Source: an uncultured Candidatus Sumerlaeota bacterium
GTDB taxonomy: Bacteria > Sumerlaeota > Sumerlaeia > SLMS01 > JAHLLQ01
NCBI GenBank assembly: GCA_964580585.1
Contig: CAZOKZ010000001.1
Span: 23,261 to 87,260 of the forward strand
DNA: 64,000 nt
Direction: 5' to 3'
The notes under the pieces were generated by a model, which had not been told where the DNA came from, searched no databases, and saw nothing but the letters and a program-made list of their open reading frames with translations. Positions 1,403 to 22,735 of the stretch are shown piece after piece. Numbering within the stretch: position 1 is the first letter of the stretch; each line of letters starts with the position of its first letter. The translations under genes were made by a program, and so were the position numbers.

Positions 1403-1409
1403 AAATAAT

Positions 1410-2043: not shown

Positions 2044-2056
2044 CGTGTTTTTTCCG

Positions 2057-2899: not shown

Positions 2900-2924
2900 G
2901 GAATCGTATCCAGCGGAAAAAGGA

Positions 2925-2957: not shown

Positions 2958-2963
2958 GATGTG

Positions 2964-4454: not shown

Positions 4455-4624
4455 GGTTTTTTCTCCGCACGTTGGTATGAAGGGTGAAAACAGAAACGGG
4501 CCGCCTTTCGAGGCCGCCCGTCCGTTAGCACTCTTATTTGTAGGCAAAAGTTGTTCCACCGTGGCTGGAGAAGACAAGAGAAATGTTTTAAGGAGAGCGA
4601 AGAAAGGAAGAACGCCGTAACGCG

Positions 4625-5833
4625 TCACTCATTCGGCAGCTTATCCCGTAAGACTTTCCAGGCCAGATTAAGTCGTTTCGCTTTGGCTTCAGCCATTTTG
4701 CGGAAGTCTTCATCGTCGTGGAACTTGTCGGGATGGTAGCGCATTTGCATTTTACGGAAAATTTTCTGCGCGTATTCAAGTGTTGTATTTTCCGTCAGCG
4801 CGAACAACTCCAGCGCTTCCTCGAAGGAAATTTTATCTTCGACTCTCAGTTTTTCTTCAGAGGCTCCATTGTCTTCACGGGGCTCTTCTTCCTCGGGCTC
4901 ATCCGCTTTGGGGGGCGCTTTCGGGCGAGTTTCCCAACCGCCCATGGGATGAGCCTGGATTTTAGGGGCCAGGTCGTTGCGCAGCATTTCTTCGACATCG
5001 ATGACAGAAAGCGGGCGACCCATGCCTTCGAGCGCTTCACAAATATGACGTGTTGTTGGGGGCTCGAACGCACGTTCGATGAATTCCAAAATATAGCGAC
5101 CCAGGAAATTTCGCAAATGCGGATCGTCCAGGTACTGATCCGGCTTTGTGTTGGCGTCCACGGCGCCGTAATCCGCGGGCTCTGTGTCCCCATCGCCCAG
5201 CATGCGAGCAAATCGTCCGGCGGTCGCGCGCATCTGGCTGTAAATGGCCTGATAGGAGTGAAGCGACCCCGCTTGGATTGGAGGAATATCCATGTCGGAT
5301 TTCTTGCGGCCAAATCCCACGGCATCATTGAAAACAACAACTTTGCCTTTGTGTGGCGGTCCCACCATTTTTTTGGCGGAATCGGCAATTTCATGCGTCA
5401 TGCAGAGGATCAAATTTGCCCAGCGAATTTGAGGAGCCAGTAAGGGCTTGCTGCGATGCCCTTTCAGGCTAACCCGGTGTTCGTAGAGGAATTTGGCGAA
5501 TTCGCGCTCGGGTGGCGTGGGCACTTGCACGTCGATTCCGGCACTATCGAAGGACGTATCGAAGACGTTGAACTCCTTGGCAAAGTTCTGCGTCATCGCC
5601 CGAGCCATAGGCCCGCGGAACAGATCGTGATTGCTGAGAAAAAGGACATGCATTTTTATTGTGCGGTCGTTGCGATGCGTTTGAAAGTCTCGAATACGAT
5701 GAGACCAGTCTTGCCACGAGCCAATCAAATTATTGAGAATTCTTGGGCGAATTTTCACGAGACTCCTCAACCCGGGATTCTTCACAGGCTGTTCCATGAA
5801 AGACGGAATTGTACGGATCGTTCTTAAGCGCAT
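4625..5833 (-). CDS. Fusion protein with a low-molecular-weight PTP/ArsC-like domain (Ser replaces the CX5R cysteine: SNHDLFRGP) and a C-terminal J domain (HPD motif).
   Basis: VLFLSNHDLFRGPMA resembles the LMW-PTP P-loop with C to S; C-terminus YAQKIFRKMQMRYHPDKF ... KAKRLNLAWKVL is a J domain. The start is uncertain: it could be the internal Met at 5653. Confidence 0.55.
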   Translation of the reverse strand: MRLRTIRTIPSFMEQPVKNPGLRSLVKIRPRILNNLIGSWQDWSHRIRDFQTHRNDRTIKMHVLFLSNHDLFRGPMARAMTQNFAKEFNVFDTSFDSAGIDVQVPTPPEREFAKFLYEHRVSLKGHRSKPLLAPQIRWANLILCMTHEIADSAKKMVGPPHKGKVVVFNDAVGFGRKKSDMDIPPIQAGSLHSYQAIYSQMRATAGRFARMLGDGDTEPADYGAVDANTKPDQYLDDPHLRNFLGRYILEFIERAFEPPTTRHICEALEGMGRPLSVIDVEEMLRNDLAPKIQAHPMGGWETRPKAPPKADEPEEEEPREDNGASEEKLRVEDKISFEEALELFALTENTTLEYAQKIFRKMQMRYHPDKFHDDEDFRKMAEAKAKRLNLAWKVLRDKLPNE

Positions 5834-6320
5834 TGCCTTGATTTGTTTTACGCTGGATTTGCGTGCCAGCCGTCGGATTCGGCGCGCGATGGGGGAGACA
5901 TCTTACCGGTTGGGAGGTCGCTGTCAGGGGTGTGCCAAATGTTGCGAAGCTCCCACGATCCAGGTGGGGATTCTGACCTATCGACTGGTGACATTTCGGA
6001 TGATTTTTCTCGCCTGGCATCGGTGGGTGAACGGATTTCACCTGACGGGCGAGGACCCGCAAATTCGGGCGTTCGAATTTCGCTGCACCCATTTCGATCC
6101 GAAAACCCGTCGGTGCGATTCGTACACCAGCCGCCCCGGCATGTGCCGCGATTACCCGAGAGCGCTGCTCTGGGAAGCCAACCCGCCATTGTTTCCTGAA
6201 TGTGGCTACCGTGCCGTGGCGCCCAACGCCGAACAGGTGACCGCGCTGCTCGAACACGAAGACTTGCCGCCGGAGAAGTTGGAGGAGTTGAAGGAGAAGT
6301 TGATGCTGAAGGATGAATAA
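5796..6320 (+). CDS. YkgJ/UPF0153 family protein with a putative Zn/Fe-chelating CxxCxxCC domain.
   Basis: CQGCAKCCE motif plus downstream conserved Cys and RPxxCRxYP; start ambiguous (5733 or 5796). Confidence 0.55.
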   Translation: MKDGIVRIVLKRIALICFTLDLRASRRIRRAMGETSYRLGGRCQGCAKCCEAPTIQVGILTYRLVTFRMIFLAWHRWVNGFHLTGEDPQIRAFEFRCTHFDPKTRRCDSYTSRPGMCRDYPRALLWEANPPLFPECGYRAVAPNAEQVTALLEHEDLPPEKLEELKEKLMLKDE

Positions 6321-6476
6321 CCGGTAAATTCCACCCCACCCCCTCCATCTAGGGTTTGACCTTTACCGCCCGACCGGGCTTGACTAATCAAGAACGTGCG
6401 TTGACGAAATTCCCGGGCCCCTGCCCGCCAGACGGAGCCACACCCCCTGACGGACCTGTTTTCACTCGCGGCGAAT

Positions 6477-7244
6477 ATGCAGATTCGCGACGTTATCGAT
6501 ATCCTGATGATATCGATCGTCTTCTTTTTGCTCTTCAACATGATCCGAAAATCGCGCAGCCAGGTGGCTTTGCGCGGATTGCTGATCGTGCTTTCGTTCA
6601 CGTTACTGCTTTATTTGATCACGGTCATGGCGGAACTGAGCGCCACCAAGGCACTGCTGACCCGGCTATGGGTCGTGTTCGTGCTGATTTTCCTGATCGT
6701 GTTCCAGAACGAGTTCAAGAAAAGCCTGACCGACTATGGCCGGTTGCCAATTTTTAGAGCCTTGTTCAAGCAGGAAGCCGCTCCTTTGGACGAGGTAATC
6801 AAGGCAGTCGCGCGTTTGGCGGAAAAAAAAGTCGGGGCATTGATTTGCATCGAGCGTCGCACACCGCTCAGGCCTTATATTGAAACGGGCACCATGATCG
6901 ACGGGCTCGTCACCGTCGAATTGCTCCGAACTATTTTTGCACTCTATACGCCATTGCACGACGGGGCGGTAATCATGCGCAATAACCGCATCGTGGCGGC
7001 GGGATGCCTGTTGCCGTTGACCAATCAGGAACTCTCCAAAGATTTAGGCACGCGTCACCGGGCGGCGATTGGATTGGGCGAAGAAACGGACGCCGTCGTC
7101 GTAGTCGTTTCGGAAGAAACCGGGACGATCTCGATTGCCTACGACGGTATTATCCAACGACCGGAAACCGCGGATTCCTTGCGCCAAAAGCTGCGCGATC
7201 TGTTTGAAATCGAAGAGGAGGAAGCGGATGTCGAAGCCGTCTAG
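6477..7244 (+). CDS. cdaA: Diadenylate cyclase CdaA (c-di-AMP synthase) with three N-terminal TM helices and a DAC domain.
   Basis: DGA(V/I)I ... RHRAA(I/L)G ... SEETG motifs; strong similarity to Bacillus CdaA. Confidence 0.9.
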   Translation: MQIRDVIDILMISIVFFLLFNMIRKSRSQVALRGLLIVLSFTLLLYLITVMAELSATKALLTRLWVVFVLIFLIVFQNEFKKSLTDYGRLPIFRALFKQEAAPLDEVIKAVARLAEKKVGALICIERRTPLRPYIETGTMIDGLVTVELLRTIFALYTPLHDGAVIMRNNRIVAAGCLLPLTNQELSKDLGTRHRAAIGLGEETDAVVVVVSEETGTISIAYDGIIQRPETADSLRQKLRDLFEIEEEEADVEAV

Positions 7245-8442
7245 CGGTCCATTCAGTGATTTCGCTCTCATCCTCTTTTCGCTCGCGTTGGGGTTCATTG
7301 TCTGGGTCATCGTTCGCCAGCAGGAAACGGTGACGCGCACGGTCCTGGTGCCGGTGTATTACGAAAACCTGCCGGATTATATTGAGTTGCAGGACTATAA
7401 TCCAAAGAATATCGCTGTCAGCTTCAGCCTGGCCAAGGGCGACGACCCCCTGACAAGCGCGTCGGAAAAATTTCGCGCCACGGTGGATTTGACTCGATTG
7501 GTAGAGCGCAATATCCAAACGGAGAGCTTTAAGGAAATCTCTCTTCCGGTGGAACGGACTAAACTCGATTATCCCAAGAAGCTTACATTTATAGCCTTCG
7601 AGGATACTCCGGCCGTGACGTTCAGCGCCCGATTGCGTGTCGCCATGGCACGGATCGAGGTTAACCTTGTAGGCGATCATCCGGCGATGGGTTATCGTAT
7701 CGATCGCCAGAACATTGTCATGAACCCCAACGAAATCTATGTGGCCGTTGATCAAAAACGATATGAGCAATCGCTGACAAACCAGTTGGTCATCAAAACG
7801 GAACCGATCGATGTGACCGGCAAGCAGGTGGGAATAACAGGTTTATACCGAGTGCTTTATGGTGAAACGGACGGAATTTTCCCCGTTCCGGGACGAGCGG
7901 AAACCGTTGAAATTATGGTGCCGATTCAAGAAGTTGAAAGCACTAGAGTTTACCATAACATCCCCGTTCGATACGAAACATTGAAACGCGGGGTGCGGGC
8001 AGAGTTGACGCCTTCCAATGTCACGGTTTCGGTCGAAGGACCACCCAGTTTGCTCACGCAATTGCAACCAGCGATGATTCGGCTGACGCCGCGAACGACG
8101 AAATTCCTCGACGAGGAACGCATCGGAGACAGTGTGGAAACGGCGATTGAGATTTCCTATCTGACGGCGGACGAAAAGTTCCAAAAACGCCTGAAAGCAA
8201 CACTCGATCCATCTTTGGTTTTGGTACGATTCTTCCCGCATACGGATGCAGTTCCGATCGACATCCCATTGGAGACCCCAATACCGGTTATTGAATCGAC
8301 ACCGACACCTGTGCCAACAGGGACACCGACCCCCACGCCGGAACCCGTTGAGATTCACGTGGACGATGACGTTACCAGTCCGTTGATTCTCCGTGTCGAG
8401 GATACCGCCACAACACCGACCGCGACGAGTACCGCGGAATGA
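7228..8442 (+). CDS. cdaR: CdaR/YbbR-like regulator of CdaA with a Pro/Thr-rich C-terminus.
   Basis: Immediately downstream of cdaA and overlapping its stop; N-terminal TM segment; YbbR-like repeat architecture. Confidence 0.65.
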   Translation: MSKPSSGPFSDFALILFSLALGFIVWVIVRQQETVTRTVLVPVYYENLPDYIELQDYNPKNIAVSFSLAKGDDPLTSASEKFRATVDLTRLVERNIQTESFKEISLPVERTKLDYPKKLTFIAFEDTPAVTFSARLRVAMARIEVNLVGDHPAMGYRIDRQNIVMNPNEIYVAVDQKRYEQSLTNQLVIKTEPIDVTGKQVGITGLYRVLYGETDGIFPVPGRAETVEIMVPIQEVESTRVYHNIPVRYETLKRGVRAELTPSNVTVSVEGPPSLLTQLQPAMIRLTPRTTKFLDEERIGDSVETAIEISYLTADEKFQKRLKATLDPSLVLVRFFPHTDAVPIDIPLETPIPVIESTPTPVPTGTPTPTPEPVEIHVDDDVTSPLILRVEDTATTPTATSTAE

Positions 8443-9722
8443 GTGAAAAACCAACCGGTCTGAACATCGTTTTCGTACAGGGTAGTTCTCTGTCGATTAA
8501 ACGCGCACACTGGGTTCAGATTTTAAACACAGCCTATGCGCTCTCTCGACGCGAAAACATTGATGTTTGGATTCTGGCGCGCACCATTCAACCCGGTGCA
8601 ATGGATGAAGTGTACGGTGGGATGGGATTCGCTCCTAACGAGCGTTTTCATGTTCACCCCGTTGTGCCCGCACGCGTCTATAACGCGTTTGGCTTGCACG
8701 GCGATTTGCTTTCTCAATCGCAAGGAAAGGTTGGAAGATGGCTGGCGTTGCGGCACGTCAAACGATTGCTCCGGGAGATTTCCACAAACGGCAAGCCCAT
8801 CGTTTTTTATACCCGCGACCAAGATGTGCCCACCACGTCTCGAGAGTTGATCGCCCGTTATCAGGCGTTGGCTATCAATGAACACCACAAGTTCGAATAC
8901 GTCAAAACGCTTGAAGGCAAACTGAAGAAAAAACGTCCCGGGCGCAGTACGCTCGCGCAGTTCAAGAACTATGCGCGTGGCGAGCGCGATCGTGAACTCC
9001 AACGTCTTGCTACTTTCGATGGTGTCGTGTGTACGACACAAAATATTCGCGAACGATTGATCGATCACGGCTATGGAAAACCGACGATCTGCATTCCGAA
9101 CGGGGCAAACCTCGACACGGCGGATAGTCTGGAAAGCATTCTTTCCAAACGTGAAAAAAACATCGATATTTTATACGTCGGTCAATTATTGCGCTGGAAA
9201 AACGTCGATTTATTGATCGAAGCGATGCCGCGCCTCCCAGGTCGAAGACTGACCGTGGTGGGAGGCGAACCGGGCGAGGACATGGACCGCCTCAAAGGTC
9301 TCGCCGCGCGTCTCGATGTTGCCGACCGGGTGGACTTCTGGGGCCATCGTCCCCACGGCGAAATCAAGGGGATCATGCAACGTTCCTGCGTTGGGGTCGT
9401 GCCTTTGCCCCGCGCAGGATTTCCCGAAGCCCGGCTGTTTTGCTGTCCGCTCAAGGCGTTAGAAATGATGGCTGCCGGTACGCCCATCGTGGCAACACGG
9501 TTGCGTTCGGTAGAAGGTTTATTAGAACATCGGCGAAACGCGTTGCTTGTGGAGCCCGACGATGCCCAAGCCATGGCAGATGGAATACGTGACGTTCTCG
9601 AAAATGACGACCTTCGTCGCCAGTTGGCCGAAGGCGGCTGGCGCACGGCACGCGATTTGTCCTACGACGAGCGCGGACGCAAAATCCTTGCTTTCATCGA
9701 AGAATGCCGTACGGGGAAATAA
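8439..9722 (+). CDS. Glycosyltransferase family 4 (GT-B, group 1).
   Basis: C-terminal GT1 signature E..AAGTPIVAT; ATGA overlap with cdaR. Confidence 0.75.
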   Translation: MSEKPTGLNIVFVQGSSLSIKRAHWVQILNTAYALSRRENIDVWILARTIQPGAMDEVYGGMGFAPNERFHVHPVVPARVYNAFGLHGDLLSQSQGKVGRWLALRHVKRLLREISTNGKPIVFYTRDQDVPTTSRELIARYQALAINEHHKFEYVKTLEGKLKKKRPGRSTLAQFKNYARGERDRELQRLATFDGVVCTTQNIRERLIDHGYGKPTICIPNGANLDTADSLESILSKREKNIDILYVGQLLRWKNVDLLIEAMPRLPGRRLTVVGGEPGEDMDRLKGLAARLDVADRVDFWGHRPHGEIKGIMQRSCVGVVPLPRAGFPEARLFCCPLKALEMMAAGTPIVATRLRSVEGLLEHRRNALLVEPDDAQAMADGIRDVLENDDLRRQLAEGGWRTARDLSYDERGRKILAFIEECRTGK

Positions 9723-9762
9723 CGTGGGCATCTTCGGAGGCTTCGGTTGTTCTCTTTTCTGT

Positions 9763-10773
9763 ATGATACCCAATAATAAATTTTTCATTCTATTTGTTGC
9801 TCTCTTCCATTTTGTTTTGGGTGTGCACGTTGCGAATGCCGAAACCAACTCGTCGGATGCATCATCCACGGCAACGCTTTCCTCCGTCCCCATAAAACCA
9901 AATCCACTGCGCATCGGATTTTTACGTCCGGAAGGCGAAACGGATTTAACCGAAGAAAGCATGGAGGGGTTGCGCAAAGCGTTGCTTGCCGACAATGCCC
10001 TCCAACAAGCGGCTACGCGCGCATATGATGCTCGTGGGATTGGCCTGTATGAAATTGATGGAGGGACGGAGATGCTCAGTCGGCTGAACGCGCGTGAATT
10101 GGATGTCGCGTTTGTACCGAGTCGCATCTGGGCCGAGCAATCCGCCGGATACACGGTGATTTTACAAACGCGAAGAAAACGCGACTTTACCGCCACGCGC
10201 GGGCGAATGGTCTGGCAACGTGGTGTGGTTTTTGTCAGTTCGCGCAGTCCGTTTTTCGATTCGGAAACGATCGATTCTTCTGACTTCGCAACCTATCTTG
10301 GCGAACAACGTATCGCCGTTGTTTCGTCGAAGAGCATGGCTGGTTATGTAGCGCCATTGCTGGCGCTTTCCGATGAATACAACCGTTCATATCCGGCGGC
10401 GGATTTGCTTTGGTGTGAATCCAGTGCCGAAGTCACTAAAGCCGTTATTTCCGGGCTTGCCGATGTGGGGACATGCGAAGAAGGCGCGATGATCGAAACG
10501 TTGAATGCGTCCGGAATCAGCGACCGTCAGCAGGAATTCACTCGCGTGATCCTCCGTTCCAGCCCTGTGCCCACCGATCCCGTTGTGGTGCACCCGGACT
10601 TGGCGCCGTCTCGATCGGAACTGGGGCGCGAACTGAAACGTGTATTGCGTTCGTATTCACTCGAAACGGGATTTGGAACAATGTCGCTTCAAGATGCACA
10701 GGACAGCGACTACGAGGAAACCCGGGCGCTTCTGCGCCGATTCGACGATCGACTGGGGAAATCCTTGCGATGA
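9763..10773 (+). CDS. Periplasmic substrate-binding-fold protein (PhnD/SsuA-like type 2 PBP), probable sensor partner of the downstream kinase.
   Basis: Signal peptide MIPNNKFFILFVALFHFVLGVHVANA; PBP-like fold by pattern; its stop overlaps the HK start. Confidence 0.45.
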   Translation: MIPNNKFFILFVALFHFVLGVHVANAETNSSDASSTATLSSVPIKPNPLRIGFLRPEGETDLTEESMEGLRKALLADNALQQAATRAYDARGIGLYEIDGGTEMLSRLNARELDVAFVPSRIWAEQSAGYTVILQTRRKRDFTATRGRMVWQRGVVFVSSRSPFFDSETIDSSDFATYLGEQRIAVVSSKSMAGYVAPLLALSDEYNRSYPAADLLWCESSAEVTKAVISGLADVGTCEEGAMIETLNASGISDRQQEFTRVILRSSPVPTDPVVVHPDLAPSRSELGRELKRVLRSYSLETGFGTMSLQDAQDSDYEETRALLRRFDDRLGKSLR

Positions 10774-12023
10774 CGTCTCCGTCCCCTTCGCGCACGCCGG
10801 CATTGTGGCCGCTGATACTTGCGCTGGTGTTTACCGTCGCCGCGCTCGTTATATTGTTTTGGCTACGTGGACGCGTCGTGAAAGAGGAGAAAGCCTTCCT
10901 TGCCTATTCTGTGCGACTCTTTGAATTGTCGGATGCCCTGCGCCGACCGGAAAACGACTCGGTGCGGTTCTCTCAGATCGAGTCCATCGCACGTAGTATC
11001 GAAGAACGCGATTTGATCGCCCATTTGCTCGTGAGTAAAAATACACAACAACGCCAAGAAGTGTTGCTTTACCCGTATTATTACGATCTCGCACATCCAA
11101 ACTGGAGCAATGAGATTTCCCAATATCAACGATTGACCATTGGTGAGGAAAACACTCCTCGCGGGTGGATTTACGTGCGCCTGAATCCCGCCAATCGCCA
11201 AGCCATCGACCGCGTTATTCTGGCATTCAGCGCCTTGATGGTTTTTTGTCTCGGCGCATTGATTTTCCGCCAACGCGGCAAAGAAACTGAGCTACATCGC
11301 ACAGTTTCAGAACTTGAGCAACGTCGGGCGGAAGTCATCCGACTCGAACGGCTGGCGTTGGCCGGACAACTCTCCGCCAATATTTTTCACGATATCAAAA
11401 AACCGGTTCTGAACATCAAGCACGAGGTCACCGACGCGCTCGATATGGGCCATTCCAGCGAGGAAACCCTTCGGGCGGTACATGAACAAACCGAGTTGTT
11501 TTTGAAAATGTTGCGCGAATTGGGTTTTGAACAATTCGTGCGCGCAGAAACCGAAGAAGGCGAATATTGCGATGTACCAGAAATGGTCGAACGTGCATTG
11601 TCCCTGGTGAAGTATGAACGCGGCGATGTGGAGATTGAAATTGATGTGCCAAACGATGGTTCGTTGCCGTTGATATTTGCTTCGCCGCATCGCCTGATTC
11701 AGTTATTTTCCAACCTGATTTTAAATGCTTACCAGGCAATGGATGGCAAAGGAGTCCTGCGGATTCGCGCAACATTGGAAGACAAAAACATCGCTCTTCA
11801 ATTCGATGACAATGGCCCGGGCATCGATCCTGAACTGCGCGAAACGTTGTTCGATCCATTTGTCACGACAAAAAGCCACTCCGAAGGTTCTGGCCTTGGT
11901 TTATACATTTGCGCGAAAATCGCTGCCGATTTGCACGGCGAACTGGTTCTGACGAATTCATCCTTCGAGCAAGGAACTGGATTCAAGATTGTGCTTCCCG
12001 GGTTGCAACCAGAGTCCATATGA
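10770..12023 (+). CDS. Sensor histidine kinase (TM helix, HisKA and HATPase_c domains).
   Basis: H-box LALAGQLSANIFHDIKKP; N, G1, G2 boxes (DDNGPGID, GSGLGL); ATGA overlap with the upstream gene. Confidence 0.8.
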   Translation: MTSPSPSRTPALWPLILALVFTVAALVILFWLRGRVVKEEKAFLAYSVRLFELSDALRRPENDSVRFSQIESIARSIEERDLIAHLLVSKNTQQRQEVLLYPYYYDLAHPNWSNEISQYQRLTIGEENTPRGWIYVRLNPANRQAIDRVILAFSALMVFCLGALIFRQRGKETELHRTVSELEQRRAEVIRLERLALAGQLSANIFHDIKKPVLNIKHEVTDALDMGHSSEETLRAVHEQTELFLKMLRELGFEQFVRAETEEGEYCDVPEMVERALSLVKYERGDVEIEIDVPNDGSLPLIFASPHRLIQLFSNLILNAYQAMDGKGVLRIRATLEDKNIALQFDDNGPGIDPELRETLFDPFVTTKSHSEGSGLGLYICAKIAADLHGELVLTNSSFEQGTGFKIVLPGLQPESI

Positions 12024-12074
12024 AGTTACCTTGAAAGAGTGGGATTTTGGATCCAATTCTGGTGGTTGGTTAAC

Positions 12075-13547
12075 ATGACAAACAGCAGCACAAACCCTTA
12101 TCAACGACTCGACGTGTGGGAAACGCTCAAAGCCCACGTGCTCGATCACGTGCCGCGATTACTGGAGCACGTGCCAGACAAATCGCGCGCCGATTGGAAA
12201 CGTCTGCCGCTATTCGAGGCTCAACTGTTCGCGGCAATGGTGTTGCTTGATTTAGACGTGGAAAGCTCTTCGCTTCGGCGCCAGGCGCGTTCGTTTTTGA
12301 AAGAGTTGAAGGACGAAGAAACTGCTCAAACACCCGCATTCGGTGTTGTGCGCGAATCTTCTCCCACGTTTGTGGAAAAATTGACTCCCACTAAACGAAA
12401 AAAAGTACAGCAATTGATCGCCGCTGTTGAGGCGAATCCTCCAGGAGCCTTTTTGGCTGACGTGTCGGGCCCACAAGCCGCCGTTAGATGGGTGGGTCAG
12501 GAAATCAAACATCTCAATGGACTCAAAGCGCATCGTTGGCTGGTTGCCTTGGGCTATCCGATGGCGGTGCCCGATGCCGCCCGGCAACGGTTTCTGATGC
12601 GCATGGGCTGGATGGGAACAGAATCAGGTTCAGGCGATGAAAAACGTGCGCAAACGTTGGAGTCGCTTGAGGTGTTGGCGCATGAAGTTGGCGCAACGTT
12701 GAGTGAAATCAACCTTGTGTTAGGAGCATTTTGCGGGTCGGGTGGTGAAATTGCGCGCCAGGCAGCGCGCTGCCTGGGAGTCCCCAAATGTCCGCAATGT
12801 CCACTTGCCAAACATTGCACCTACTACCGGTTGCGCGGGAAAGAAGTCCGCTCACAGAACCGCAGTCTGGTGGCTACCACCCGCAAAGAGCAGCGCCCAC
12901 GTGAACGGTTGGCAGCTCAAGGCCCCGGAGTATTGAGCGATGAAGAATTGCTCGCCATTATTCTGCGCACTGGTGGGGGAGGACTGAACGCCATCGATCT
13001 GGCGCAGCAAATTTTACGCGAGGCCGGAACGTTCGAGCGCCTGGCTGCCATGTCGGTGGCCGAATTGGCCCGCTTTCCCGGTATGGGAGAGGTCAAGGCA
13101 ATCACAATCAAAGCGGCGCTTGAAATGGCGCGGCGATTGAAACAAAGCGGCGATGGTTCGGTGGGGGTGAAAATCAACAGTGCCCGGCGCGTCTTCGAGC
13201 GTTTACGTCCCCGATTTATCGGAGCGACAAAGGAAGAGTTTCTGGTATTGTTGTTGAACACCAAATTGGAAATTACGCGCGAAGTTCACGTTTCAACGGG
13301 AACGTTGAACCAAAGCCTCGTTCATCCCCGTGAGGTATTCAGCGAAGCAATTCGCGACGCCGCTCACGCGGTGATCTTCATCCACAATCACCCAAGCGGC
13401 GACCCCGAGCCCAGCCGGGAGGATTTTGCGGTGACGAATAAATTGGTCAAGGCGGGCGAAATCATGGGAATTCAAGTGCTCGATCATATTATCATTGGGC
13501 GCGACCGATACTATTCCTTTGCGGACGAGGGGAAATTGACCTCGTAA
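12075..13547 (+). CDS. radC: RadC/JAB-domain protein with an extra N-terminal domain of about 280 aa resembling an HhH-GPD (EndoIII-like) module, including an FCL-like Cys loop.
   Basis: C-terminal HNHPSGDPEPSREDFAVT JAMM-like motif and RadC HhH N-region (LSDEELLAIIL...); N-terminal C-x5-C-x2-C-x5-C and HhH-like LNGLKAHRWLVALGY. Confidence 0.7.
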   Translation: MTNSSTNPYQRLDVWETLKAHVLDHVPRLLEHVPDKSRADWKRLPLFEAQLFAAMVLLDLDVESSSLRRQARSFLKELKDEETAQTPAFGVVRESSPTFVEKLTPTKRKKVQQLIAAVEANPPGAFLADVSGPQAAVRWVGQEIKHLNGLKAHRWLVALGYPMAVPDAARQRFLMRMGWMGTESGSGDEKRAQTLESLEVLAHEVGATLSEINLVLGAFCGSGGEIARQAARCLGVPKCPQCPLAKHCTYYRLRGKEVRSQNRSLVATTRKEQRPRERLAAQGPGVLSDEELLAIILRTGGGGLNAIDLAQQILREAGTFERLAAMSVAELARFPGMGEVKAITIKAALEMARRLKQSGDGSVGVKINSARRVFERLRPRFIGATKEEFLVLLLNTKLEITREVHVSTGTLNQSLVHPREVFSEAIRDAAHAVIFIHNHPSGDPEPSREDFAVTNKLVKAGEIMGIQVLDHIIIGRDRYYSFADEGKLTS

Positions 13548-13667
13548 GCCGGAAGTTCGGCATCTAGGAATGATCCTCCTTGCGAACCAGCCCTGGTTTT
13601 ATGCAACTATTTTCAAGCGACAGAAAATATGAGCTGTCGAGTTAATAATAATTGGGAAAGAAATATA

Positions 13668-15005
13668 ATGAGTTTTGAACATTTTGGCCTGCGTTCCGAA
13701 TTATTGGACGCAATCCAGCAGCTCGAATTCGACAAACCTACCCAGGTCCAGGAAAAAGCCATCCCGGAAATTCTTAAGGGGCGCGATGTTTTAGGGCGTG
13801 CGCAAACAGGTACGGGGAAAACTGCGGCGTATGGGTTGCCTATTCTTCATCGTTTATTGGAGCAAACGAACCGGCGTCCCCGCGTGTTGGTGATTCTGCC
13901 GACACGGGAATTAGCGCGCCAAGTCAACGAGCAAATGACGGAACTGGCGCGATTTACCAAACTGAAGGGATTCAGCGTTACCGGCGGCGAGGCCTACGTG
14001 ATTCAGGAACATGCGTTTCGCGCTGGCGGAATGGACTGGATCGCCACCACACCCGGGCGATTGCTTTATCACCTCTCGCACGATTATGTGGACTTCAGCG
14101 CTATCGAGTATTTGGTCCTCGATGAAGCCGATCAACTGCTCGACATGGGATTTATTCAGGACATCCGCAAGATCGTCAGTTACCTGCCCGAAAAACGGAT
14201 GACGCTATTATTCTCGGCGACCTTGCCCGCGCAAATGCGCGAACTGGCGCGTCATATTCTGACAAATCCCATTCGTATCGACGTGGGGTTGGCAACGACC
14301 GCCGAACCGGTTGTCGAGGAACTCTGGCCTGTGCCTCAGGATCAAAAACTCGACCTGCTGGTGCGTTTGCTCGATCAACGTCAGATGACCAGTGCCCTGA
14401 TTTTCACACGCACGAAACGTCGGGCGGATTCGTTGGCGAACAGTTTGGAACGAGCGGGAAAAACCGCCGAAGTCCTTCACGCCGACCGAGTCATGGCCGA
14501 TCGCAAGACCTCGCTGGCTTCTTTTCGCGCAGGCGATGTTCCCATTCTCGTCGCAACAGATCTGGCCGCGCGGGGGTTGGACATTTCCGGTATTTCCCAT
14601 GTGATTAATTACGATGTTCCAACCGCGCCAGAAGATTATATTCATCGCGTCGGTCGCACAGGCCGGGCCGGTCGAACGGGAGAAGCCCTGACTTTTATGT
14701 CGGCGAACGAAGAAATTTGCATCGCTAAAATCGAACATCTTATCGGCAAGCGCATTCCAAGCAAACGGATGGAAAATTTCCCTTATCATGAGGAACGGCG
14801 AGAGGATGCCGAAGAAATCAAGTCCCGATCCAATCGCCTTGCCAATTTTAACACTCGACTCGGATCCAAGGAAAAACGCGAATCGCCATTTACAAAAAAT
14901 GGTACTGCGCGGCGCGGATTTGAAGTCCCCGACCCGAACACCGAAGAGAAAAAAAGACGACGTAAACGCGTGAAGATCAGAAAGAAGCTGCCGCATCAGC
15001 GATAA
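13668..15005 (+). CDS. DEAD-box ATP-dependent RNA helicase.
   Basis: Q motif, GTGKT, DEAD (VLDEAD), SAT and HRVGRTGR motifs; basic C-terminal tail. Confidence 0.85.
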   Translation: MSFEHFGLRSELLDAIQQLEFDKPTQVQEKAIPEILKGRDVLGRAQTGTGKTAAYGLPILHRLLEQTNRRPRVLVILPTRELARQVNEQMTELARFTKLKGFSVTGGEAYVIQEHAFRAGGMDWIATTPGRLLYHLSHDYVDFSAIEYLVLDEADQLLDMGFIQDIRKIVSYLPEKRMTLLFSATLPAQMRELARHILTNPIRIDVGLATTAEPVVEELWPVPQDQKLDLLVRLLDQRQMTSALIFTRTKRRADSLANSLERAGKTAEVLHADRVMADRKTSLASFRAGDVPILVATDLAARGLDISGISHVINYDVPTAPEDYIHRVGRTGRAGRTGEALTFMSANEEICIAKIEHLIGKRIPSKRMENFPYHEERREDAEEIKSRSNRLANFNTRLGSKEKRESPFTKNGTARRGFEVPDPNTEEKKRRRKRVKIRKKLPHQR

Positions 15006-15034
15006 CCTCTACACAGTACCCGATAAAAACGAAT

Positions 15035-15070
15035 CCGCCTCGCAATTATCTTGCGAGGCGGAAGTTTTTT
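15035..15070. terminator. Bidirectional rho-independent terminator (CCGCCTCGCAA-TTATC-TTGCGAGGCGG followed by TTTTTT, with an A-run upstream) between the convergent helicase gene and zapA.
   Basis: Perfect 11-bp stem plus U-tract, read from sequence. Confidence 0.6.
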
Positions 15071-15088
15071 CGGATGAAACGAGGTGGG

Positions 15089-15424
15089 TTAGACCGCCAA
15101 GGCATTATCGACTTTGGCGAGCAAGCCTTCGAGGCGTTTGACGGCTTCGCGTTGGCGTTGCAACTCGTGGTGCAACTGTTCGGCTTCGTCCAGACAGTCG
15201 TTTGCGATATTCAAATCGCATGCGAACTGAAAAGCCACCATGGTGGCGATTTTTTGGGGCGAAGCGGTAGCCATGCGTTCGGTCAATTTCCGCATGCGCT
15301 CCGCAACCTGAGCCGCAGCTTTCTCGACATGAACCTTTTCCTCCGGTTCGATTTCGAGGCGCACTTCATGACCGGCAACATTGACGGCGATCTTTTCCCG
15401 ACTCGAATTATCCAGCGTTTTCAT
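15089..15424 (-). CDS. zapA: Cell division protein ZapA.
   Basis: Pattern similarity to the ZapA N-terminal domain plus a coiled coil; 111 aa; co-operonic with a ZapB-like gene. Confidence 0.65.
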   Translation of the reverse strand: MKTLDNSSREKIAVNVAGHEVRLEIEPEEKVHVEKAAAQVAERMRKLTERMATASPQKIATMVAFQFACDLNIANDCLDEAEQLHHELQRQREAVKRLEGLLAKVDNALAV

Positions 15425-16241
15425 GGACTAACTCCATTTGAGAAAGGCATTCTTCGGCGTGTTGAATTCGATCGATCAGGACGCTGAGGCGTTGACGCAT
15501 TTTTTCATCGCGTGCGTCGGCATTCTGAATACGCTGCACCAGTTCCTCTTTCTCCTGGCGCAGAACGGTCAATTCACTTTCCAATTCGTTGAACTGGCCC
15601 ATGCGCGATTCCAATTCGAGGAATTTTTCGACTTCCTCGTCAAGGTCGCGCTGTAATTCATCACGTTTCTGATTCAGACCGGTGATCGTTCCCTCAAGAC
15701 CCGCCACACGGTTTTGCGCTTCTTCGAGTTGGCTACGCATTCCATCTACCTCGCGTGACAATTCACCCACTCGATTGTTGGCTAGGTCCAATTGGCCCTG
15801 AATTTCATTGCGGTGGTTGACAACACCGTCGTGCCAACCTTCCAGCTCGGTGATGCGTGCGCGAGCCCCATCCAGTTCGCCCTGGATTTCATCGCGATGC
15901 TTCACGGCGCTATCGTGCCAGCCCTGGATTTCATTGGCGCGGGCCTGGGCTGCGTCCAATTCACTGCGAACGGTATTCAATTCATTATGAAGATTTTCTT
16001 TTTCGCCACGTAACTGGTCGCGTTCGGTGCGCAGCGCTTCGAGCTCCTTGCGCTCTTCCTCGAAACGCGCCAATTCTTCGAGCGCTTCCGAAAGATCCGA
16101 CTGAATTTTGTCGTGGTCGGCGACCGTGACTTTCAAGGCGTCGTTTTCGGTTTCCAACTGATTCTTCGTCGTGCGCAGGGATTCGAGCTCGTCAATGAGG
16201 CGATTTACGCGCGCTTCCAACTGATCAACAATTTCCACCAT
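15408..16241 (-). CDS. ZapB-like coiled-coil protein, extended to 277 aa, with internal repeats (GWHD ... EIQG.LD).
   Basis: N-terminus resembles the ZapB leucine-zipper region; a coiled-coil heptad pattern runs throughout; overlaps the zapA start by 17 nt. Confidence 0.5.
   Translation of the reverse strand: MVEIVDQLEARVNRLIDELESLRTTKNQLETENDALKVTVADHDKIQSDLSEALEELARFEEERKELEALRTERDQLRGEKENLHNELNTVRSELDAAQARANEIQGWHDSAVKHRDEIQGELDGARARITELEGWHDGVVNHRNEIQGQLDLANNRVGELSREVDGMRSQLEEAQNRVAGLEGTITGLNQKRDELQRDLDEEVEKFLELESRMGQFNELESELTVLRQEKEELVQRIQNADARDEKMRQRLSVLIDRIQHAEECLSQMELVHENAG
15787..15954. repeat. Two tandem copies of an 84-nt unit inside the ZapB-like gene, encoding the 28-aa repeat GWHD.VV.HR.EIQG.LD ...
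   Basis: Direct comparison of 15787-15870 with 15871-15954, about 70% identical. Confidence 0.5.
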
Positions 16242-16618
16242 GAGCGTATCATCCTTCCGAATAGGTATCTGCAGGAACAGGAACGGGGTTTGAATCTAAA
16301 GATTCCCTGGAAACACCCGAACCCTGTCGAATGAGTCCTCACAGTGTCAATAGTAATGCGGAATACCATGAAGTCTTCTTTTGGACTGCGAGTTATCCAC
16401 AGCTTTGCCGAATCGGCGCAACAACCTGGGGGAGGAATGGCGGGTTTTTGACACCTAATGGCTATTGAAACGCTTCTATTGAATCTTACGCAACTGTTGA
16501 ATTTACAATCTCCTGCGCAAAACCCTCGCGCCGCCGAAATTCCCCGTGGCATACTTTGAGATTGCGATATGATCTCCCCAGGATGCTGGGCGCTTGCCCG
16601 CTCGCAAAGGCTGCAACG

Positions 16619-17113
16619 ATGGCGTCTTACGCCTTTGGCTTGATATCCGACACGCATGGAGTCCTGCACCCAGATGTCTTCGACATCTTCGATGGGGTGC
16701 ATGCGATTTTTCATGCGGGCGATGTCGAAGGCGAAGATATACTGGACGAATTGGAAACCATCGCTCCCGTTTTTGCCGTTCAGGGAAATTGCGATCATCC
16801 CAGCCCACGATTGCCCCCTATCCAGGTTATCGATGCGCCGTTTGGCAGCATTGTTGTCTCTCACAGTCATCTGGTAGCGGGGGGGGTTGCTCATCCGAAA
16901 ATGTTGGCCAAGCACTTTGGGCGCTATAATCCCCGGGTCATTATTTTTGGGCACACACACCGGCCCTATGAGTACGAACACGACGGAATTTGGCTGATCA
17001 ATCCCGGACCGGCAGGAAAATCGCGTAACTATGACAATGCGTCGGTCGTTTACATGCAATGGCACGATGAAAACGACGAATTGACGTTCGACTTTGTGCC
17101 CTTGATTTGGTGA
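16619..17113 (+). CDS. Metallophosphoesterase, YfcE/MJ0936 family.
   Basis: GLISDTHG, HAGD, GNCD and GHTH motifs. Confidence 0.8.
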   Translation: MASYAFGLISDTHGVLHPDVFDIFDGVHAIFHAGDVEGEDILDELETIAPVFAVQGNCDHPSPRLPPIQVIDAPFGSIVVSHSHLVAGGVAHPKMLAKHFGRYNPRVIIFGHTHRPYEYEHDGIWLINPGPAGKSRNYDNASVVYMQWHDENDELTFDFVPLIW

Positions 17114-17163
17114 TCGACTTTGCCCGATTCGGGGCGCTCAATAACTGAAAGCCGGGGAACGGC

Positions 17164-17715
17164 ATGAATAGACCAAAAATTCCAATAACGCTAGTCTTGT
17201 TTGTTCTATTTACTTTCTTTACGCTGCTCGAGATAAAGTTGATTTTCATGCTCGCCGCGTGGACCAGTTGGCCGACCACGATCCTGATTGCCATCGGTAC
17301 GGGCTTGGCCGGTTCGGTGATGGTCAAACGCGAGGGCCTGAACGTCATCACTCGGGCCAAACGGGAGCTTGCCTCGGGTCAATTTCCGGCAGAACCCATC
17401 GCCGATGGGTTAATAATTCTCATCGGTGGGGCATTTTTGATCACCCCGGGTTTGATAACCGACCTGATCGGACTTTCTACCCTCGTTGCTCCGATTCGCA
17501 AGTTATACACAACTATCCTGATTCGGTGGGCAAAGCGCAGCTTCCAATTTCGTGTTGGAACAAATGGCGGTTTCCAGGCGTTTACCAGTGGCAGAGCACG
17601 ACCGCAACATCCGCATCAAGCACCATTCGAGGGTGAACCGGAGGATACACCTCATCGTCCGACACCCTTTAAGACGGACGACGCGGTGGATGTGGAATTT
17701 CGTCGGGTCGATTAG
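17164..17715 (+). CDS. fxsA: FxsA family inner-membrane protein.
   Basis: Two N-terminal TM helices and a conserved ITPGLITDLIGL-type motif, similar to E. coli FxsA. Confidence 0.75.
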   Translation: MNRPKIPITLVLFVLFTFFTLLEIKLIFMLAAWTSWPTTILIAIGTGLAGSVMVKREGLNVITRAKRELASGQFPAEPIADGLIILIGGAFLITPGLITDLIGLSTLVAPIRKLYTTILIRWAKRSFQFRVGTNGGFQAFTSGRARPQHPHQAPFEGEPEDTPHRPTPFKTDDAVDVEFRRVD

Positions 17716-18548
17716 CCTTTTCTGCGATTAGCCTTTGCTTCTCGATAGACTGATAGCGATCGGTGAGCTCGATCAAACAACGTTTGGCTATTTTCGATCT
17801 TCACCCCGGCGGAATCTTCATAAACCGAGATGAAACGTCCCGCTAATTCAGGCGTAAATTCGTATCGCATGACAGAAAGAAACAGCTCGAACAGAGCTTC
17901 ATCGCGTTTGGCGTTGGTGATGGGCTTACCGATGCGCGTACCATCGAGATCGATCAGGCAAAAACGTTCACCGATGGCAGCGTTTTTTTCGATCGGAACA
18001 ACAGGATAAATATGATCGCTGCGGTAATCGTGGTGATATACCAACAATCCGTGTATCCATGCTGTATATTGCGCTACCTGGTCGAGCATTTCACCATCGG
18101 GCCCATTTCGATTCAACCAATGATCGAGTGGCTCCCAAGCAGGTGGCAAACCTCGCGTGACGATAAAAGTGGTTCCGTCCGGTGATTTCGCATACAAAAC
18201 CGGCTCGGGAGTCAAAACGCCCTTTTCCAACAACTCACGTCCGGCTTTCCATTCCCGCCAGGACTTTGATCCGCGAAAGAGGTTGGAAATCCGCTGGCGC
18301 AACAATCGTGGTTTCATCCGCTTGAAATACAGTTTTTCATCCTTGAAATTGGAAGCCAGCACTAACCGCGAGCGCCCGCGTTTAGCGAGCTCAATCCCGT
18401 CGGGGAGCGGTTTTTTGTCGCCTGCGTTCTGCCAGGGCAGGGATTCTGGGGCGAGGTCCTCGTAACCGTGAAGAACGTACCCTCGGAATTTTCCTCGATG
18501 CCATTCGCGAGGTTCGGGTTGAGGGCCAGTGATGGGTGGAAGATTCAT
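17712..18548 (-). CDS. Lipopolysaccharide/Kdo kinase-like (PF06293-like) protein.
   Basis: HHDYRSDHIYP ... CLIDLDG resembles a kinase catalytic loop plus DFG-like motif; weak. Confidence 0.4.
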   Translation of the reverse strand: MNLPPITGPQPEPREWHRGKFRGYVLHGYEDLAPESLPWQNAGDKKPLPDGIELAKRGRSRLVLASNFKDEKLYFKRMKPRLLRQRISNLFRGSKSWREWKAGRELLEKGVLTPEPVLYAKSPDGTTFIVTRGLPPAWEPLDHWLNRNGPDGEMLDQVAQYTAWIHGLLVYHHDYRSDHIYPVVPIEKNAAIGERFCLIDLDGTRIGKPITNAKRDEALFELFLSVMRYEFTPELAGRFISVYEDSAGVKIENSQTLFDRAHRSLSVYREAKANRRKG

Positions 18549-18662
18549 ATCGGTGGCAAGAGAGAGTAAATTTTCTTCACTTTGGCGGAGAAGAGATTGC
18601 GACGCAAGCGCTGCTCGTCAATGTTTTCCGCCTTATCTGAATTTTAGCGAAATACTCGTCCG

Positions 18663-19388
18663 ATGAAAAACGATCCACGACAAGACCCAACCGATCCTGC
18701 CTGGCGTCCGCCGGTCGATGCGACTTTGCCCTTTCCTCCCGAGGGAGAAGTGGATCACCCGAATCTGAAGGAAGTGCTCTATACTCATCTGGAGCCGGGT
18801 AAAGTCGTTGTTGACGTGGGGTGTGGCACAGGGCCGTTCGAGTATCATCGCTATGCCGCGTCGTTCATTGCGTTCGACATGTTCGAGCCTGACAATCGTG
18901 AAGGCTTGGTAGAAGATCGCGATGAATTTCGTTTGGGCAAGTTGGAGACGTTTCCTATCGAAGATGCTTCGTGCGATGCCGTTATCCTGGGATTCATTCT
19001 GGAACACGTGCCGGACCCCGCGCGTTTCATGCGAGAAGCCGAACGTGTTTTGCGTCCCGGAGGATGGTGTTACGTGGCAGTACCGCATTACCGGTCGCTG
19101 GAAGACCGATTATTTCGTCTGGCAACAACCGTAGCGGGCAGTACACGCGGTCCGCACATTCAAAAGTTTACGTTTAAAAATTTCACCGAAATGGTGCACA
19201 ATGAAACCTCGTTGCGGTTAAGCAGTTGGCACTTGTTGCGTGCGTCGTTTTTGTTCATGATGCACCCGAAGTTGCGTCCCTTTCGACGCCCATTCATTCG
19301 CACGTTGCAAGTGTTGAAAAAAATCGGTCTGGATGGATTCCACGAAGCGAATTACCAATTTTTATTTCGCAAGGCATTAGACCCCTAG
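18663..19388 (+). CDS. Class I SAM-dependent methyltransferase.
   Basis: VVDVGCGTGPF (motif I) and LRPGGWCYVAVP (post-II). Confidence 0.7.
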   Translation: MKNDPRQDPTDPAWRPPVDATLPFPPEGEVDHPNLKEVLYTHLEPGKVVVDVGCGTGPFEYHRYAASFIAFDMFEPDNREGLVEDRDEFRLGKLETFPIEDASCDAVILGFILEHVPDPARFMREAERVLRPGGWCYVAVPHYRSLEDRLFRLATTVAGSTRGPHIQKFTFKNFTEMVHNETSLRLSSWHLLRASFLFMMHPKLRPFRRPFIRTLQVLKKIGLDGFHEANYQFLFRKALDP

Positions 19389-19405
19389 AATAATACAGGC
19401 AATTC

Positions 19406-20707
19406 ATGAACGACCCACATGCCAGCCTTCGTTTTCTGACCCCGCGCAATTTGCTCGGTGTGTGGGCGGGGCTTTGTTTGTATCTGGGGATCTATTGGCG
19501 AAATCCTCAGTTGTTGTTTATTGGCACAGCGTCGTTCCTCGCACTGCTCTCCAGTATCTGGCAAGCATCACGGATGCTCCGTGACGTACGCATTGCGCGC
19601 CACCACACAGCACGCGCCTTCGAGGGCCAGTTCGTACACGTATCGCTTGAATTGGAATCGAAATCGAAGGCTCGCGAGCACTTGGTGATGTTGGAAGATT
19701 ACTTTCCACCGGGCGAAGCACTGCGCGTGAAGCACCTGATTCGTGACTCGTTTACGCGTGGAGAGCGCATAAACGTCGAGTATCTGGGCGAGATCGTCCA
19801 CCGACGCGGATTGTACACGCTCGGACCGGTGCGTCTCGAAGCCTACGATCCGATGGGGATAATCAAACGGAAACTGAAGATCGAAACGTTTACCTCGTTG
19901 TTGGTCTATCCATCTGCCGTTGATTTGCATATGACCGAATTGTTGGGCGATGGAACATTGGCGCATGTGGGTATTGAAACAACGCGACGTCCTGGAAGAA
20001 GTACCGAATATACCGGCTTACGTCAGTATCGCATTGGCGACAGCCCGAACACCATCCATTGGCGTTCGACAGCACGTGTCGGGCATTTGATGGTAAAAGA
20101 ATTTCAGGAAGACATGATGACGCATGTGTCGATCTTTATCGATATTGGGCGATTGGGACTAACCGGACTCGGCGATCAGACATCGATCGAGTACGCCATC
20201 AAGGCCGCTGCCAGTTTAGCCAAACGCGCCATCGAAAACGCCCATTATGTGCAAGTATTCGCGGTAGGGACGGAGATCGAGCATATTCCCCTCGGGTCCG
20301 GAAGCCGCCATTTGCTGATGATTCTCGACCGGCTGGCATTTTTGAAGGCTCAAGGCGATTCCGTCTTTCCGGAAACGGTGCTGCACTACACGCCGTTGCT
20401 TAAACCCGGAGGAACAGTGATTCTCGTTCTCAGTTTAACGACGCTTTCCATCGATACCATCGAACCTTTGATCGCGGCGTTGCTTTATCGGCGTTTATTA
20501 CCCGTTGTGGTGTTGATCGACGACCGCGCGTTCATCAAACTTTACCGCGAACAGGAAACGAGTCATAGTGAAGGATTGAGTATCGAAGACGCCGTGAAAT
20601 ATCTGACAGCTCAGGGAGTTCGCGTTCACCTGGTGACAAAAGCCAAGTCTCCGAAACAGGCTCTATTACAGGGTCTGGAAAGGAGTTGCCTCGCTGATGA
20701 ATATTGA
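19406..20707 (+). CDS. DUF58 (vWA-like) protein of the MoxR-DUF58-TGase class, with two N-terminal TM helices.
   Basis: Diagnostic LRQYRIGDSPNTIHWRSTAR motif. Confidence 0.7.
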   Translation: MNDPHASLRFLTPRNLLGVWAGLCLYLGIYWRNPQLLFIGTASFLALLSSIWQASRMLRDVRIARHHTARAFEGQFVHVSLELESKSKAREHLVMLEDYFPPGEALRVKHLIRDSFTRGERINVEYLGEIVHRRGLYTLGPVRLEAYDPMGIIKRKLKIETFTSLLVYPSAVDLHMTELLGDGTLAHVGIETTRRPGRSTEYTGLRQYRIGDSPNTIHWRSTARVGHLMVKEFQEDMMTHVSIFIDIGRLGLTGLGDQTSIEYAIKAAASLAKRAIENAHYVQVFAVGTEIEHIPLGSGSRHLLMILDRLAFLKAQGDSVFPETVLHYTPLLKPGGTVILVLSLTTLSIDTIEPLIAALLYRRLLPVVVLIDDRAFIKLYREQETSHSEGLSIEDAVKYLTAQGVRVHLVTKAKSPKQALLQGLERSCLADEY

Positions 20708-21920: not shown

Positions 21921-22735
21921 TGACCCCAGAATCTCCGAATACCGTTTCCACTCCTCCAGAGCAAAATTCCAACTCCTGGGAATTAATGCATGGCGATTGT
22001 TTCGATATCGCACCGAGACTTCAGCCGGAAAGCTTTTCGCTGATCTATCTGGACCCTCCATTTTTTACGGGGAAAGTCCACTCTTCACCGGAAAAAACGA
22101 ACAATGGCTTTCGAGATGTCTGGCAAAACGATATCGTCGATTTCACCGATTACCTGGGAGCGCGGATCGAACGTCTGATCCCCCTTCTAACGCCGACGGG
22201 GTCCATGTTACTTCATCTGGATTGGCATGCGGTACATTATTTGAAGGTCCGGTGCGACAAACTCTTCGGAATGCAGAATTTCCAAAATGAAATCATCTGG
22301 GCATACCGGTCGGGTGGCGGAACAAAGAAACGATACGGCCGTAAACACGACACGATTTTGTGGTACAGTAAGGGGAAAAAGTTTTGCTTCAACACAGACG
22401 AAGCCCGCGTGCCGTACGATGCAACCATTGCCGCCAAACGCGCGCACCTGTTCCATGAAAATGGCAAGGTCGCGGGGGACGTGCTCGATATTTCGCGTCC
22501 TCCGAATCATGCGCGGGAGTGGACGGGCTGGCCGACACAAAAACCCATGGCGTTGCTCGATTGGCTGACTCGCGTCCACAGCAAGCCGGGCGATTTGGTG
22601 GGAGATTTTTTCTGTGGCAGCGGCACGACTCTGGTAGCCGCCACAAATCTTGGCCGCCGCGCATTGGGTTGCGATATGAGCCTGGATGCGTTGGAAATCG
22701 CCAACAGCCGATTACGGCAATCAAAATTGGACTAA
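21920..22735 (+). CDS. DNA methyltransferase, beta class (N6-adenine or N4-cytosine; PF01555-like), apparently an orphan.
   Basis: Motif IV LIYLDPPF at the N-terminus and motif I FFCGSGTT at the C-terminus; ATGA overlap with the upstream membrane-protein gene. Confidence 0.8.
   Translation: MTPESPNTVSTPPEQNSNSWELMHGDCFDIAPRLQPESFSLIYLDPPFFTGKVHSSPEKTNNGFRDVWQNDIVDFTDYLGARIERLIPLLTPTGSMLLHLDWHAVHYLKVRCDKLFGMQNFQNEIIWAYRSGGGTKKRYGRKHDTILWYSKGKKFCFNTDEARVPYDATIAAKRAHLFHENGKVAGDVLDISRPPNHAREWTGWPTQKPMALLDWLTRVHSKPGDLVGDFFCGSGTTLVAATNLGRRALGCDMSLDALEIANSRLRQSKLD

Follow-up and report, generated by a model that had tools for sequence, protein, structure and literature searches.

At positions 12075..13547, the stretch of DNA analyzed here encodes a 490-residue protein in which a complete RadC is preceded by a domain with the fold of the HhH-GPD glycosylase superfamily (HhH, helix-hairpin-helix). 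The stretch, referred to as the window in the following, comprises 64,000 nucleotides from an uncultured Candidatus Sumerlaeota bacterium (contig CAZOKZ010000001.1 of assembly GCA_964580585.1, positions 23,261 to 87,260); the open reading frame (ORF) and all its features described below lie on the forward strand. The ORF is complete, begins with ATG and continues in an uninterrupted frame, and its product is identical to the database protein P0004, which comes from an NCBI contig of 218 kb. From the N-terminus, it consists of an all-helical domain (residues 1–268, 12075..12878), assigned to the HhH-GPD fold on the basis of profile searches, profile-profile comparisons and a structure model, followed by the N-terminal (HhH)2 domain of RadC, UPF0758_N (residues 269–343, 12879..13103), and the RadC JAB/MPN+ domain (residues 367–486, 13173..13532). 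Our analysis confirms that the fusion of RadC to an N-terminal glycosylase-fold domain is real. Literature searches for fusions of RadC with a glycosylase or an HhH-GPD domain, and for RadC in Sumerlaeota, returned nothing relevant; what we describe is the known RadC family in an arrangement that had not been reported before and is typical of its lineage, with a diverged HhH-GPD/iron-sulfur (Fe-S) domain.

The C-terminal part of the protein, residues 274–488, matches the NCBIfam models of RadC, which span 212–218 positions, over their full length (NF000642: E=4e-72, 242 bits at a curated cut-off of 180; TIGR00608: E=2e-63, 214 bits at a curated cut-off of 134). At the domain level, Pfam recognizes UPF0758_N (PF20582, E=5e-24) together with HHH_5 (E=5e-5), and the JAB domain (PF04002, E=6e-44), which shares 48% sequence identity with the Chlorobium RadC of structure 2qlc (E=1.5e-34) and superimposes on it in a Foldseek comparison of the model with a template modeling (TM) score of 0.90. 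The JAMM zinc motif is composed of E387 (nt 13233–13235) and the segment HNHPSGDPEPSRED, H437-x-H439-x7-S447-x2-D450 (residues 437–450, nt 13383–13424), in which the initial annotation had already recognized HNHPSGDPEPS. This motif is intact in the window protein and in 60 of 60 aligned fusion homologs, the set to which all counts out of 60 in this study refer. Judged by their sequence, residues 274–488 are a complete canonical RadC with an intact JAMM zinc site. Canonical RadC/UPF0758 proteins, as described by NF000642, TIGR00608, PF20582 with PF04002 and 2qlc, share the same (HhH)2 domain and JAMM motif (E…HxHx7SxxD), which the window protein carries in its C-terminal 215 residues. They measure about 212–225 residues, whereas the window protein adds about 270 N-terminal residues that form a separate domain; the approximately 280 extra residues noted originally correspond to the 270–280 found here beyond the RadC models.

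The N-termini of homologs coincide with the ATG at 12075, which we therefore take as the start; with the in-frame GTG at 12039, the ORF would have 502 residues (12039..13547, forward strand). A missed stop that splits the ORF into two genes had been a concern of the initial annotation. The frame from 12075 to 13547 contains no internal stop, and the fusion is conserved among homologs. We consider the chance that it is an artefact, be it of assembly, of gene calling or of a missed stop or frameshift merging two genes, to be negligible, given that the ORF is continuous and that assemblies from NCBI, JGI, ENA and Logan contain more than 100 independent clusters with the same architecture. Furthermore, the linker between the domains is conserved (…NRSLxATTRKExRPRE…), and AlphaFold2 renders the domain junction as a confident helix. 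A split gene or missed stop was rejected on the continuity of the ORF, the start positions of the homologs and the recurrence of the architecture in these clusters.

The relationship of the N-terminal domain to the HhH-GPD superfamily only becomes visible with deep profiles. The initial annotation had proposed an EndoIII-like HhH-GPD domain and a comparison with PF00730. In a single-sequence scan of the N-terminal ~270 residues against Pfam and NCBIfam, neither PF00730 nor any other family was matched significantly, and the sole Pfam trace in the domain was EndIII_4Fe-2S at E=1.2 (residues 237–248). Likewise, a profile built from four sequences of the domain matched PDB entries at E~1 only and was too insensitive. 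As a word-indexed search retrieved just three to six homologs of the domain, we instead used an exhaustive profile search and a query with the full-length alignment. The exhaustive search yielded 154 representative proteins at E≤1e-3, about half of which are ~470–525 residues long and also bear the RadC JAB motif; the others include stand-alone proteins of ~250–280 residues with a Cys4 loop at their extreme C-terminus. An hhalign comparison of 60 fusion N-domains with 30 of the stand-alone proteins gave a probability of 99.8% and E=1.4e-27 over 247 columns, a match that extends beyond the Cys loop and covers the whole domain.

The superfamily is also reached directly. With a profile of 34 N-domain sequences, a search of solved structures matched the Ogg2-type 8-oxoguanine glycosylase 9o02 (E=1.4e-5) in the region of the HhH hairpin and the Asp, Deinococcus radiodurans EndoIII-1 (E=6e-4) in the Fe-S loop, TmOgg (E=1.7e-3) and a second EndoIII (E=8e-3, residues 47–181), with MutY among the further matches; HhH-GPD glycosylases make up 40 of the 43 matches listed. 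The comparison with PF00730 therefore fails for the single sequence in Pfam, but the assignment to the superfamily holds with the deeper profile and with hhalign, as well as in the structural comparisons below.

AlphaFold2 models the N-terminal domain with good confidence, both on its own (predicted local distance difference test, pLDDT, 90.7; predicted TM score, pTM, 0.88) and as part of the full-length fusion (pLDDT 91.4, pTM 0.67). The model shows a two-lobed helical fold with a helix-hairpin-helix, in which both lobes and the Fe-S loop are present. In a Foldseek search of the PDB with the domain, the best ~40 matches were all HhH-GPD glycosylases (probability 1.00, TM scores of 0.5–0.63), namely EndoIII, MutY/MUTYH, MjOgg, TmOgg, SsOgg, AGOG, MagIII, Mag2 and OGG1; when the full-length model was used, RadC was returned for the C-terminal part and HhH-GPD glycosylases alone for the N-terminal domain. 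Since the TM scores are moderate and the sequence identities are around 15%, we consider the domain a distant member of the superfamily. Taken together with the profile evidence, it is well supported that it represents a diverged HhH-GPD domain that the Pfam and NCBIfam models miss.

Within this domain, the HhH-like segment that had been reported for the protein is found at residues 147–173 (LNGLKAHRWLVALGYPMAVPDAARQRF, nt 12513 onward), and the hairpin, a Gly/Pro-rich loop and the helix that carries the Asp together span residues 147–178 (LNGLKAHRWLVALGYPMAVPDAARQRFLMRMG, 12513..12608). The typical hairpin of EndoIII reads LPGVGRK; that of the window protein is shortened to LNGLK. The second feature reported, a Cys loop resembling the Fe-S cluster loop (FCL) of EndoIII and MutY, is likewise present, as the tetracysteine loop CLGVPKCPQCPLAKHC, C233-x5-C239-x2-C242-x5-C248 (residues 233–248, 12771..12818). 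Each of the four cysteines is found in 60/60 homologs, which, like the recurrence of the architecture in more than 100 clusters, speaks against a chance occurrence, and the loop aligns Cys-for-Cys, with a one-residue gap, with that of Mig.MthI, and also with the loops of DrEndoIII-1 and MutY; the first spacer is either x5 or x6 across the family. The Cys4 loop is homologous to the EndoIII/MutY cluster loop, a motif that places the domain in the Fe-S-loop subgroup of the superfamily, and would most likely bind a [4Fe-4S] cluster of this type via C233, C239, C242 and C248.

Other positions of the domain are conserved to varying degrees. Close to invariance come P237 (59/60) and R176 (58/60), followed by L156 (56/60), G178 (55/60) and G160 (54/60), and a set of arginines, R68, R69, R72, R154 and R172, is retained in 37–53 of the 60 homologs. 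A different picture emerges for the Lys and Asp that the initial annotation had placed at the positions of the glycosylase catalytic residues. For the Asp, D167 (nt 12573–12575), the assignment stands, in that the alignment puts it precisely on the catalytic Asp of the Ogg2-type enzymes, the residue that is exchanged in the D-to-N variant 9o01. For the Lys, K151 (nt 12525–12527), it does not: in profile alignments the catalytic Lys of Ogg2 coincides with L150, one residue ahead of K151, and Lys is found at position 150 in none of the 60 homologs and at position 151 in 15 (Arg in 22). Because of this offset, the alignments lend no support to a bifunctional glycosylase/lyase mechanism. At the position of D167, 33 of the 60 homologs have Asp and 40 an acidic residue, with N, A, S, T, G, R, L or W found in the remaining third. 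The Asp is thus conserved in the subclade of the window protein, not across the fusion family, and any glycosylase activity is accordingly putative.

The closest relatives of the domain are the stand-alone proteins mentioned above. They share the motif HhH-P-D-x4-R-x3-R-L-G and the Cys loop with the fusion N-domain, but they are not fused to RadC, have a nearly invariant K-P-D and, unlike the fusion N-domain, match Tag models directly. Among 30 proteins tested from this family of ~260 residues, 27 match Pfam Adenine_glyco (Tag, PF03352), six HhH-GPD (PF00730) and four Ogg-HhH, and the family profile matches solved structures of Tag (E=1e-18), MjOgg (5e-10) and MutY (2e-4). These proteins (P0059, P0064, P0078 and others) combine a Tag-like N-terminal region with an Ogg2-like HhH-KPD and a C-terminal EndoIII-like Cys4 loop. 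With this composition, the apparently uncharacterized family bridges subfamilies of HhH glycosylases.

With EndoIII and MutY (PF00730 with PF10576), the fusion N-domain shares the two-lobed, all-helical fold, the HhH hairpin with the Gly/Pro loop and an Asp behind it, and the C-terminal tetracysteine loop. It differs from them in the lack of a direct PF00730 match, in its identity of ~15% and TM scores of 0.5–0.6, and in an N-terminal lobe that is about 40 residues larger; moreover, its hairpin lacks the second Gly (LNGLK as opposed to LPGVGRK), it has no catalytic Lys, its Asp is not conserved family-wide, and the first Cys spacer is x5 in the window protein. The Ogg2 enzymes (MjOgg 3knt/3fhf, 9o00–9o03 and TmOgg 3n0u) provide both the best direct profile match, in the HhH-Asp region (E=1.4e-5), and the best TM score relative to the target (0.63), but they are devoid of an Fe-S cluster and depend on a catalytic Lys that is missing from the fusion family.

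The search with the full-length alignment also uncovered a second, shorter architecture in proteins of ~342–365 residues. The alignment shows RadC in them preceded, from the N-terminus, by a short helix, by the helices downstream of the Asp and by the Cys4 loop; the HhH hairpin and the helical barrel are missing. Two of their genes, on contigs of 38 to 47 kb, have an upstream neighbor on the opposite strand and are complete rather than the second half of a split fusion. In EndoIII, the [4Fe-4S] sub-domain is formed by the N-terminal helix together with C-terminal helices, and from the alignment we take the parts kept in the short form to correspond to this sub-domain. Since the short form keeps the Fe-S sub-domain and RadC alone, what stays constant next to RadC, as far as the alignment tells, is the Fe-S module and not the base-binding lobe. 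In both loci (L011, 4001–5029, and L012, 4001–5032; proteins P0258 and P0244, ~343 residues), a DUF3604 gene lies 10 bp downstream of the short-form gene, and a Y-family polymerase, RuvX and UvrB are encoded nearby at L011.

The constancy of the Fe-S module could be taken to mean that the N-terminal domain is a sensor of redox or Fe-S status that regulates RadC with its cluster as a switch, and that it is not primarily a DNA-binding or catalytic domain. The four cysteines are indeed the sole absolutely invariant residues of the domain, and in the short form the Fe-S sub-domain by itself suffices for the fusion to RadC. We nonetheless find this improbable, as the hairpin residues L147, G149, L156 and G160 and several arginines are well conserved in the long form and point to contact with DNA. 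The Fe-S loop of EndoIII and MutY, to which the Cys4 loop is homologous, contacts the DNA backbone as well.

We therefore lean, by a modest degree, towards the view that the N-terminal domain is an HhH-type module with an Fe-S cluster that targets DNA or DNA lesions and anchors the RadC metalloenzyme there, both cluster and DNA binding being predicted. The domain would grip the DNA backbone with the HhH hairpin, the Fe-S cluster loop and a conserved, arginine-rich surface (R68, R69, R72, R154, R172 and R176), and would act mainly in the recognition of DNA or lesions and in anchoring, so that RadC might be positioned on DNA, possibly at lesions or abasic sites. As D167 is retained in the subclade of the window protein, monofunctional base excision, without lyase activity, may persist there. 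Conservation speaks for this view, with the cysteines kept in 60/60 and R176 in 58/60 homologs, compared with an Asp in 33/60 and no conserved Lys. So do the complete RadC with its intact JAMM site, the homology of the N-terminal domain to HhH glycosylases in profiles and structure, and the short sister form, in which the Fe-S module is kept and the barrel is not. It also conforms with the published fusions of RadC, all of which join DNA-handling modules; the partners catalogued are HhH, ArdC, the DnaG primase and the DinG helicase (PMC3239186), so that a glycosylase-fold partner is not among them.

Several observations weigh against a role in targeting. D167 is invariant in the nine closest homologs and in roughly the 15 closest overall, and the stand-alone family keeps the Asp in 90% or more of its members, which is why an active glycosylase has to be taken seriously. 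The first Cys spacer of the window protein is x5 instead of the x6 of the classical FCL, and how the two halves are oriented to each other is uncertain, as indicated by the full-length pTM of 0.67. Finally, it is unspecified what the delivery of RadC to DNA would bring about, because the biochemical activity of RadC is unknown: a review from 2025 finds it structurally similar only to JAMM metalloproteases and urges further study (PMC11981726). Iyer et al. predicted RadC to be a nuclease on account of its fusions and of domain displacement, and both nuclease and peptidase activities have been proposed (PMC3239186).

These points bear on a second explanation, in which the fusion is a repair enzyme with two activities: the N-terminal domain would be active as a monofunctional DNA glycosylase with a [4Fe-4S] cluster and release a damaged or alkylated base by means of D167, and RadC would then process the product, either cutting at the abasic site or taking off a peptide or protein adduct. 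The exact alignment of D167 with the catalytic Asp of the Ogg2-type enzymes (9o01 being the D-to-N variant), its invariance in the window subclade and its retention by 90% or more of the stand-alone proteins would fit such an enzyme, as would the completeness of the fold, with both lobes and the Fe-S loop, and the prediction of RadC as a nuclease from domain displacement (PMC3239186). However, about a third of the fusion family is non-acidic at the Asp position, the pocket has no further polar residue that is conserved family-wide, and the short sister form maintains the fusion to RadC without the whole base-binding barrel; nor is a substrate predictable. We thus regard this explanation as possible, but the less probable of the two.

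More speculative still, and in our estimate rather unlikely, is a two-step repair machine on a single polypeptide. Here, the [4Fe-4S] HhH-GPD domain would find a damaged base, which in the window subclade it would also excise, and the JAMM site of RadC would process the DNA intermediate, either as the nuclease that it has long been suspected to be or as a peptidase that clears a protein or peptide adduct at an abasic site. If true, such a fusion would reveal the substrate class of the near-universal RadC, whose function has been unresolved for decades.

Returning to the targeting of RadC to DNA, which we favor, the interest of the fusion lies in what it may tell us about RadC itself, which occurs across most bacterial lineages and whose biochemical activity is still unknown. 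A fusion found throughout a lineage, along with a sister form that has the Fe-S module only, adds a new contextual argument for an action of RadC on DNA, possibly where a base is damaged or missing. The fusion also offers a concrete protein for joint assays of DNA binding, Fe-S content, glycosylase activity and JAMM-dependent activities. Moreover, because Pfam and NCBIfam miss this diverged HhH-GPD subfamily, more than 100 proteins that are labeled only as RadC are under-annotated. The fusion proteins are annotated solely as 'DNA repair protein RadC', and their precomputed Pfam domains are PF04002 and PF20582 only.

The distribution of the fusion, which the initial annotation had left to be checked, was surveyed with the full-length alignment. 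The long architecture is present in at least 100 clusters at 90% identity, and nearly all of the named ones belong to Sumerlaeota; the labels are Candidatus Sumerlaeota, Sumerlaeia, Sumerlaeaceae or unclassified 'bacterium', with one labeled Candidatus Poribacteria. A search of species-representative genomes with an alignment of close homologs returned two loci, both from Sumerlaeota. RadC with a glycosylase-fold N-domain is hence an architecture typical of Sumerlaeota.

The genes around the fusion in the window are of a housekeeping nature. Upstream lie genes for a glycosyltransferase, a phosphonate-type binding protein and a histidine kinase, and downstream those for a DEAD-box helicase, ZapA and a ZapB-like coiled-coil protein. 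A conserved operon was rejected for the window, as these neighbors differ from those at both related Sumerlaeota loci (L001 and L002). An origin in a defense system or a phage was rejected as well: PADLOC gave weak, generic JAB matches only, PHROGs gave only the generic RadC term 'DNA repair protein', and the neighborhood is a housekeeping one. A recurrent neighbor was observed among distant members of the family, where a gene for an MshEN+T2SSE (GspE/PilB-type) ATPase lies directly upstream on the same strand in three of seven contexts, with an overlap of 4 bp or a gap of 8 bp (L003, 4085–6004; L005/L006, 4214–6004; L008, 3025–4860). The gene is absent from this position in the other distant contexts and in the window. 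This adjacency may link RadC to type IV pili or to the machinery of DNA uptake.

As for the upstream neighbors in the window, the ORF of the histidine kinase (10473..12023, forward strand) overlaps that of the phosphonate-type binding protein (9547..10773, forward strand) by ~300 nt. The probable start of the kinase is an internal Met near 10770, immediately ahead of the hydrophobic segment …MTSPSPSRTPALWPLILALVF….

Some further features were noted elsewhere in the window. No tRNA genes were found across its 64 kb (1..64000), and no Rfam family reached the gathering threshold. The G+C content drops to 0.44–0.49 in 26000..34000 and 42000..46000, compared with ~0.53 elsewhere in the window, and these low-G+C stretches hold large ORFs without a Pfam match, of 585 residues (31353..33110, reverse strand) and 336 residues (27122..28132); a 913-residue ORF at 34758..37499 is likewise without a Pfam match. 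An ECF-type sigma factor (extracytoplasmic function; 25055..26914, forward strand) has regions 2 and 4 within residues 45–200 and a C-terminal extension of ~400 residues without a Pfam match. At 55443..57692 on the reverse strand, a 749-residue dehydratase of the IlvD/Edd family has ~190 residues between its N- and C-terminal Pfam domains (residues 364–551), a stretch that exceeds what the domain models account for. Lastly, a 603-residue ORF at 61724..63535 on the forward strand unites the domains of porphobilinogen deaminase (HemC) and uroporphyrinogen-III synthase (HemD) in one polypeptide.

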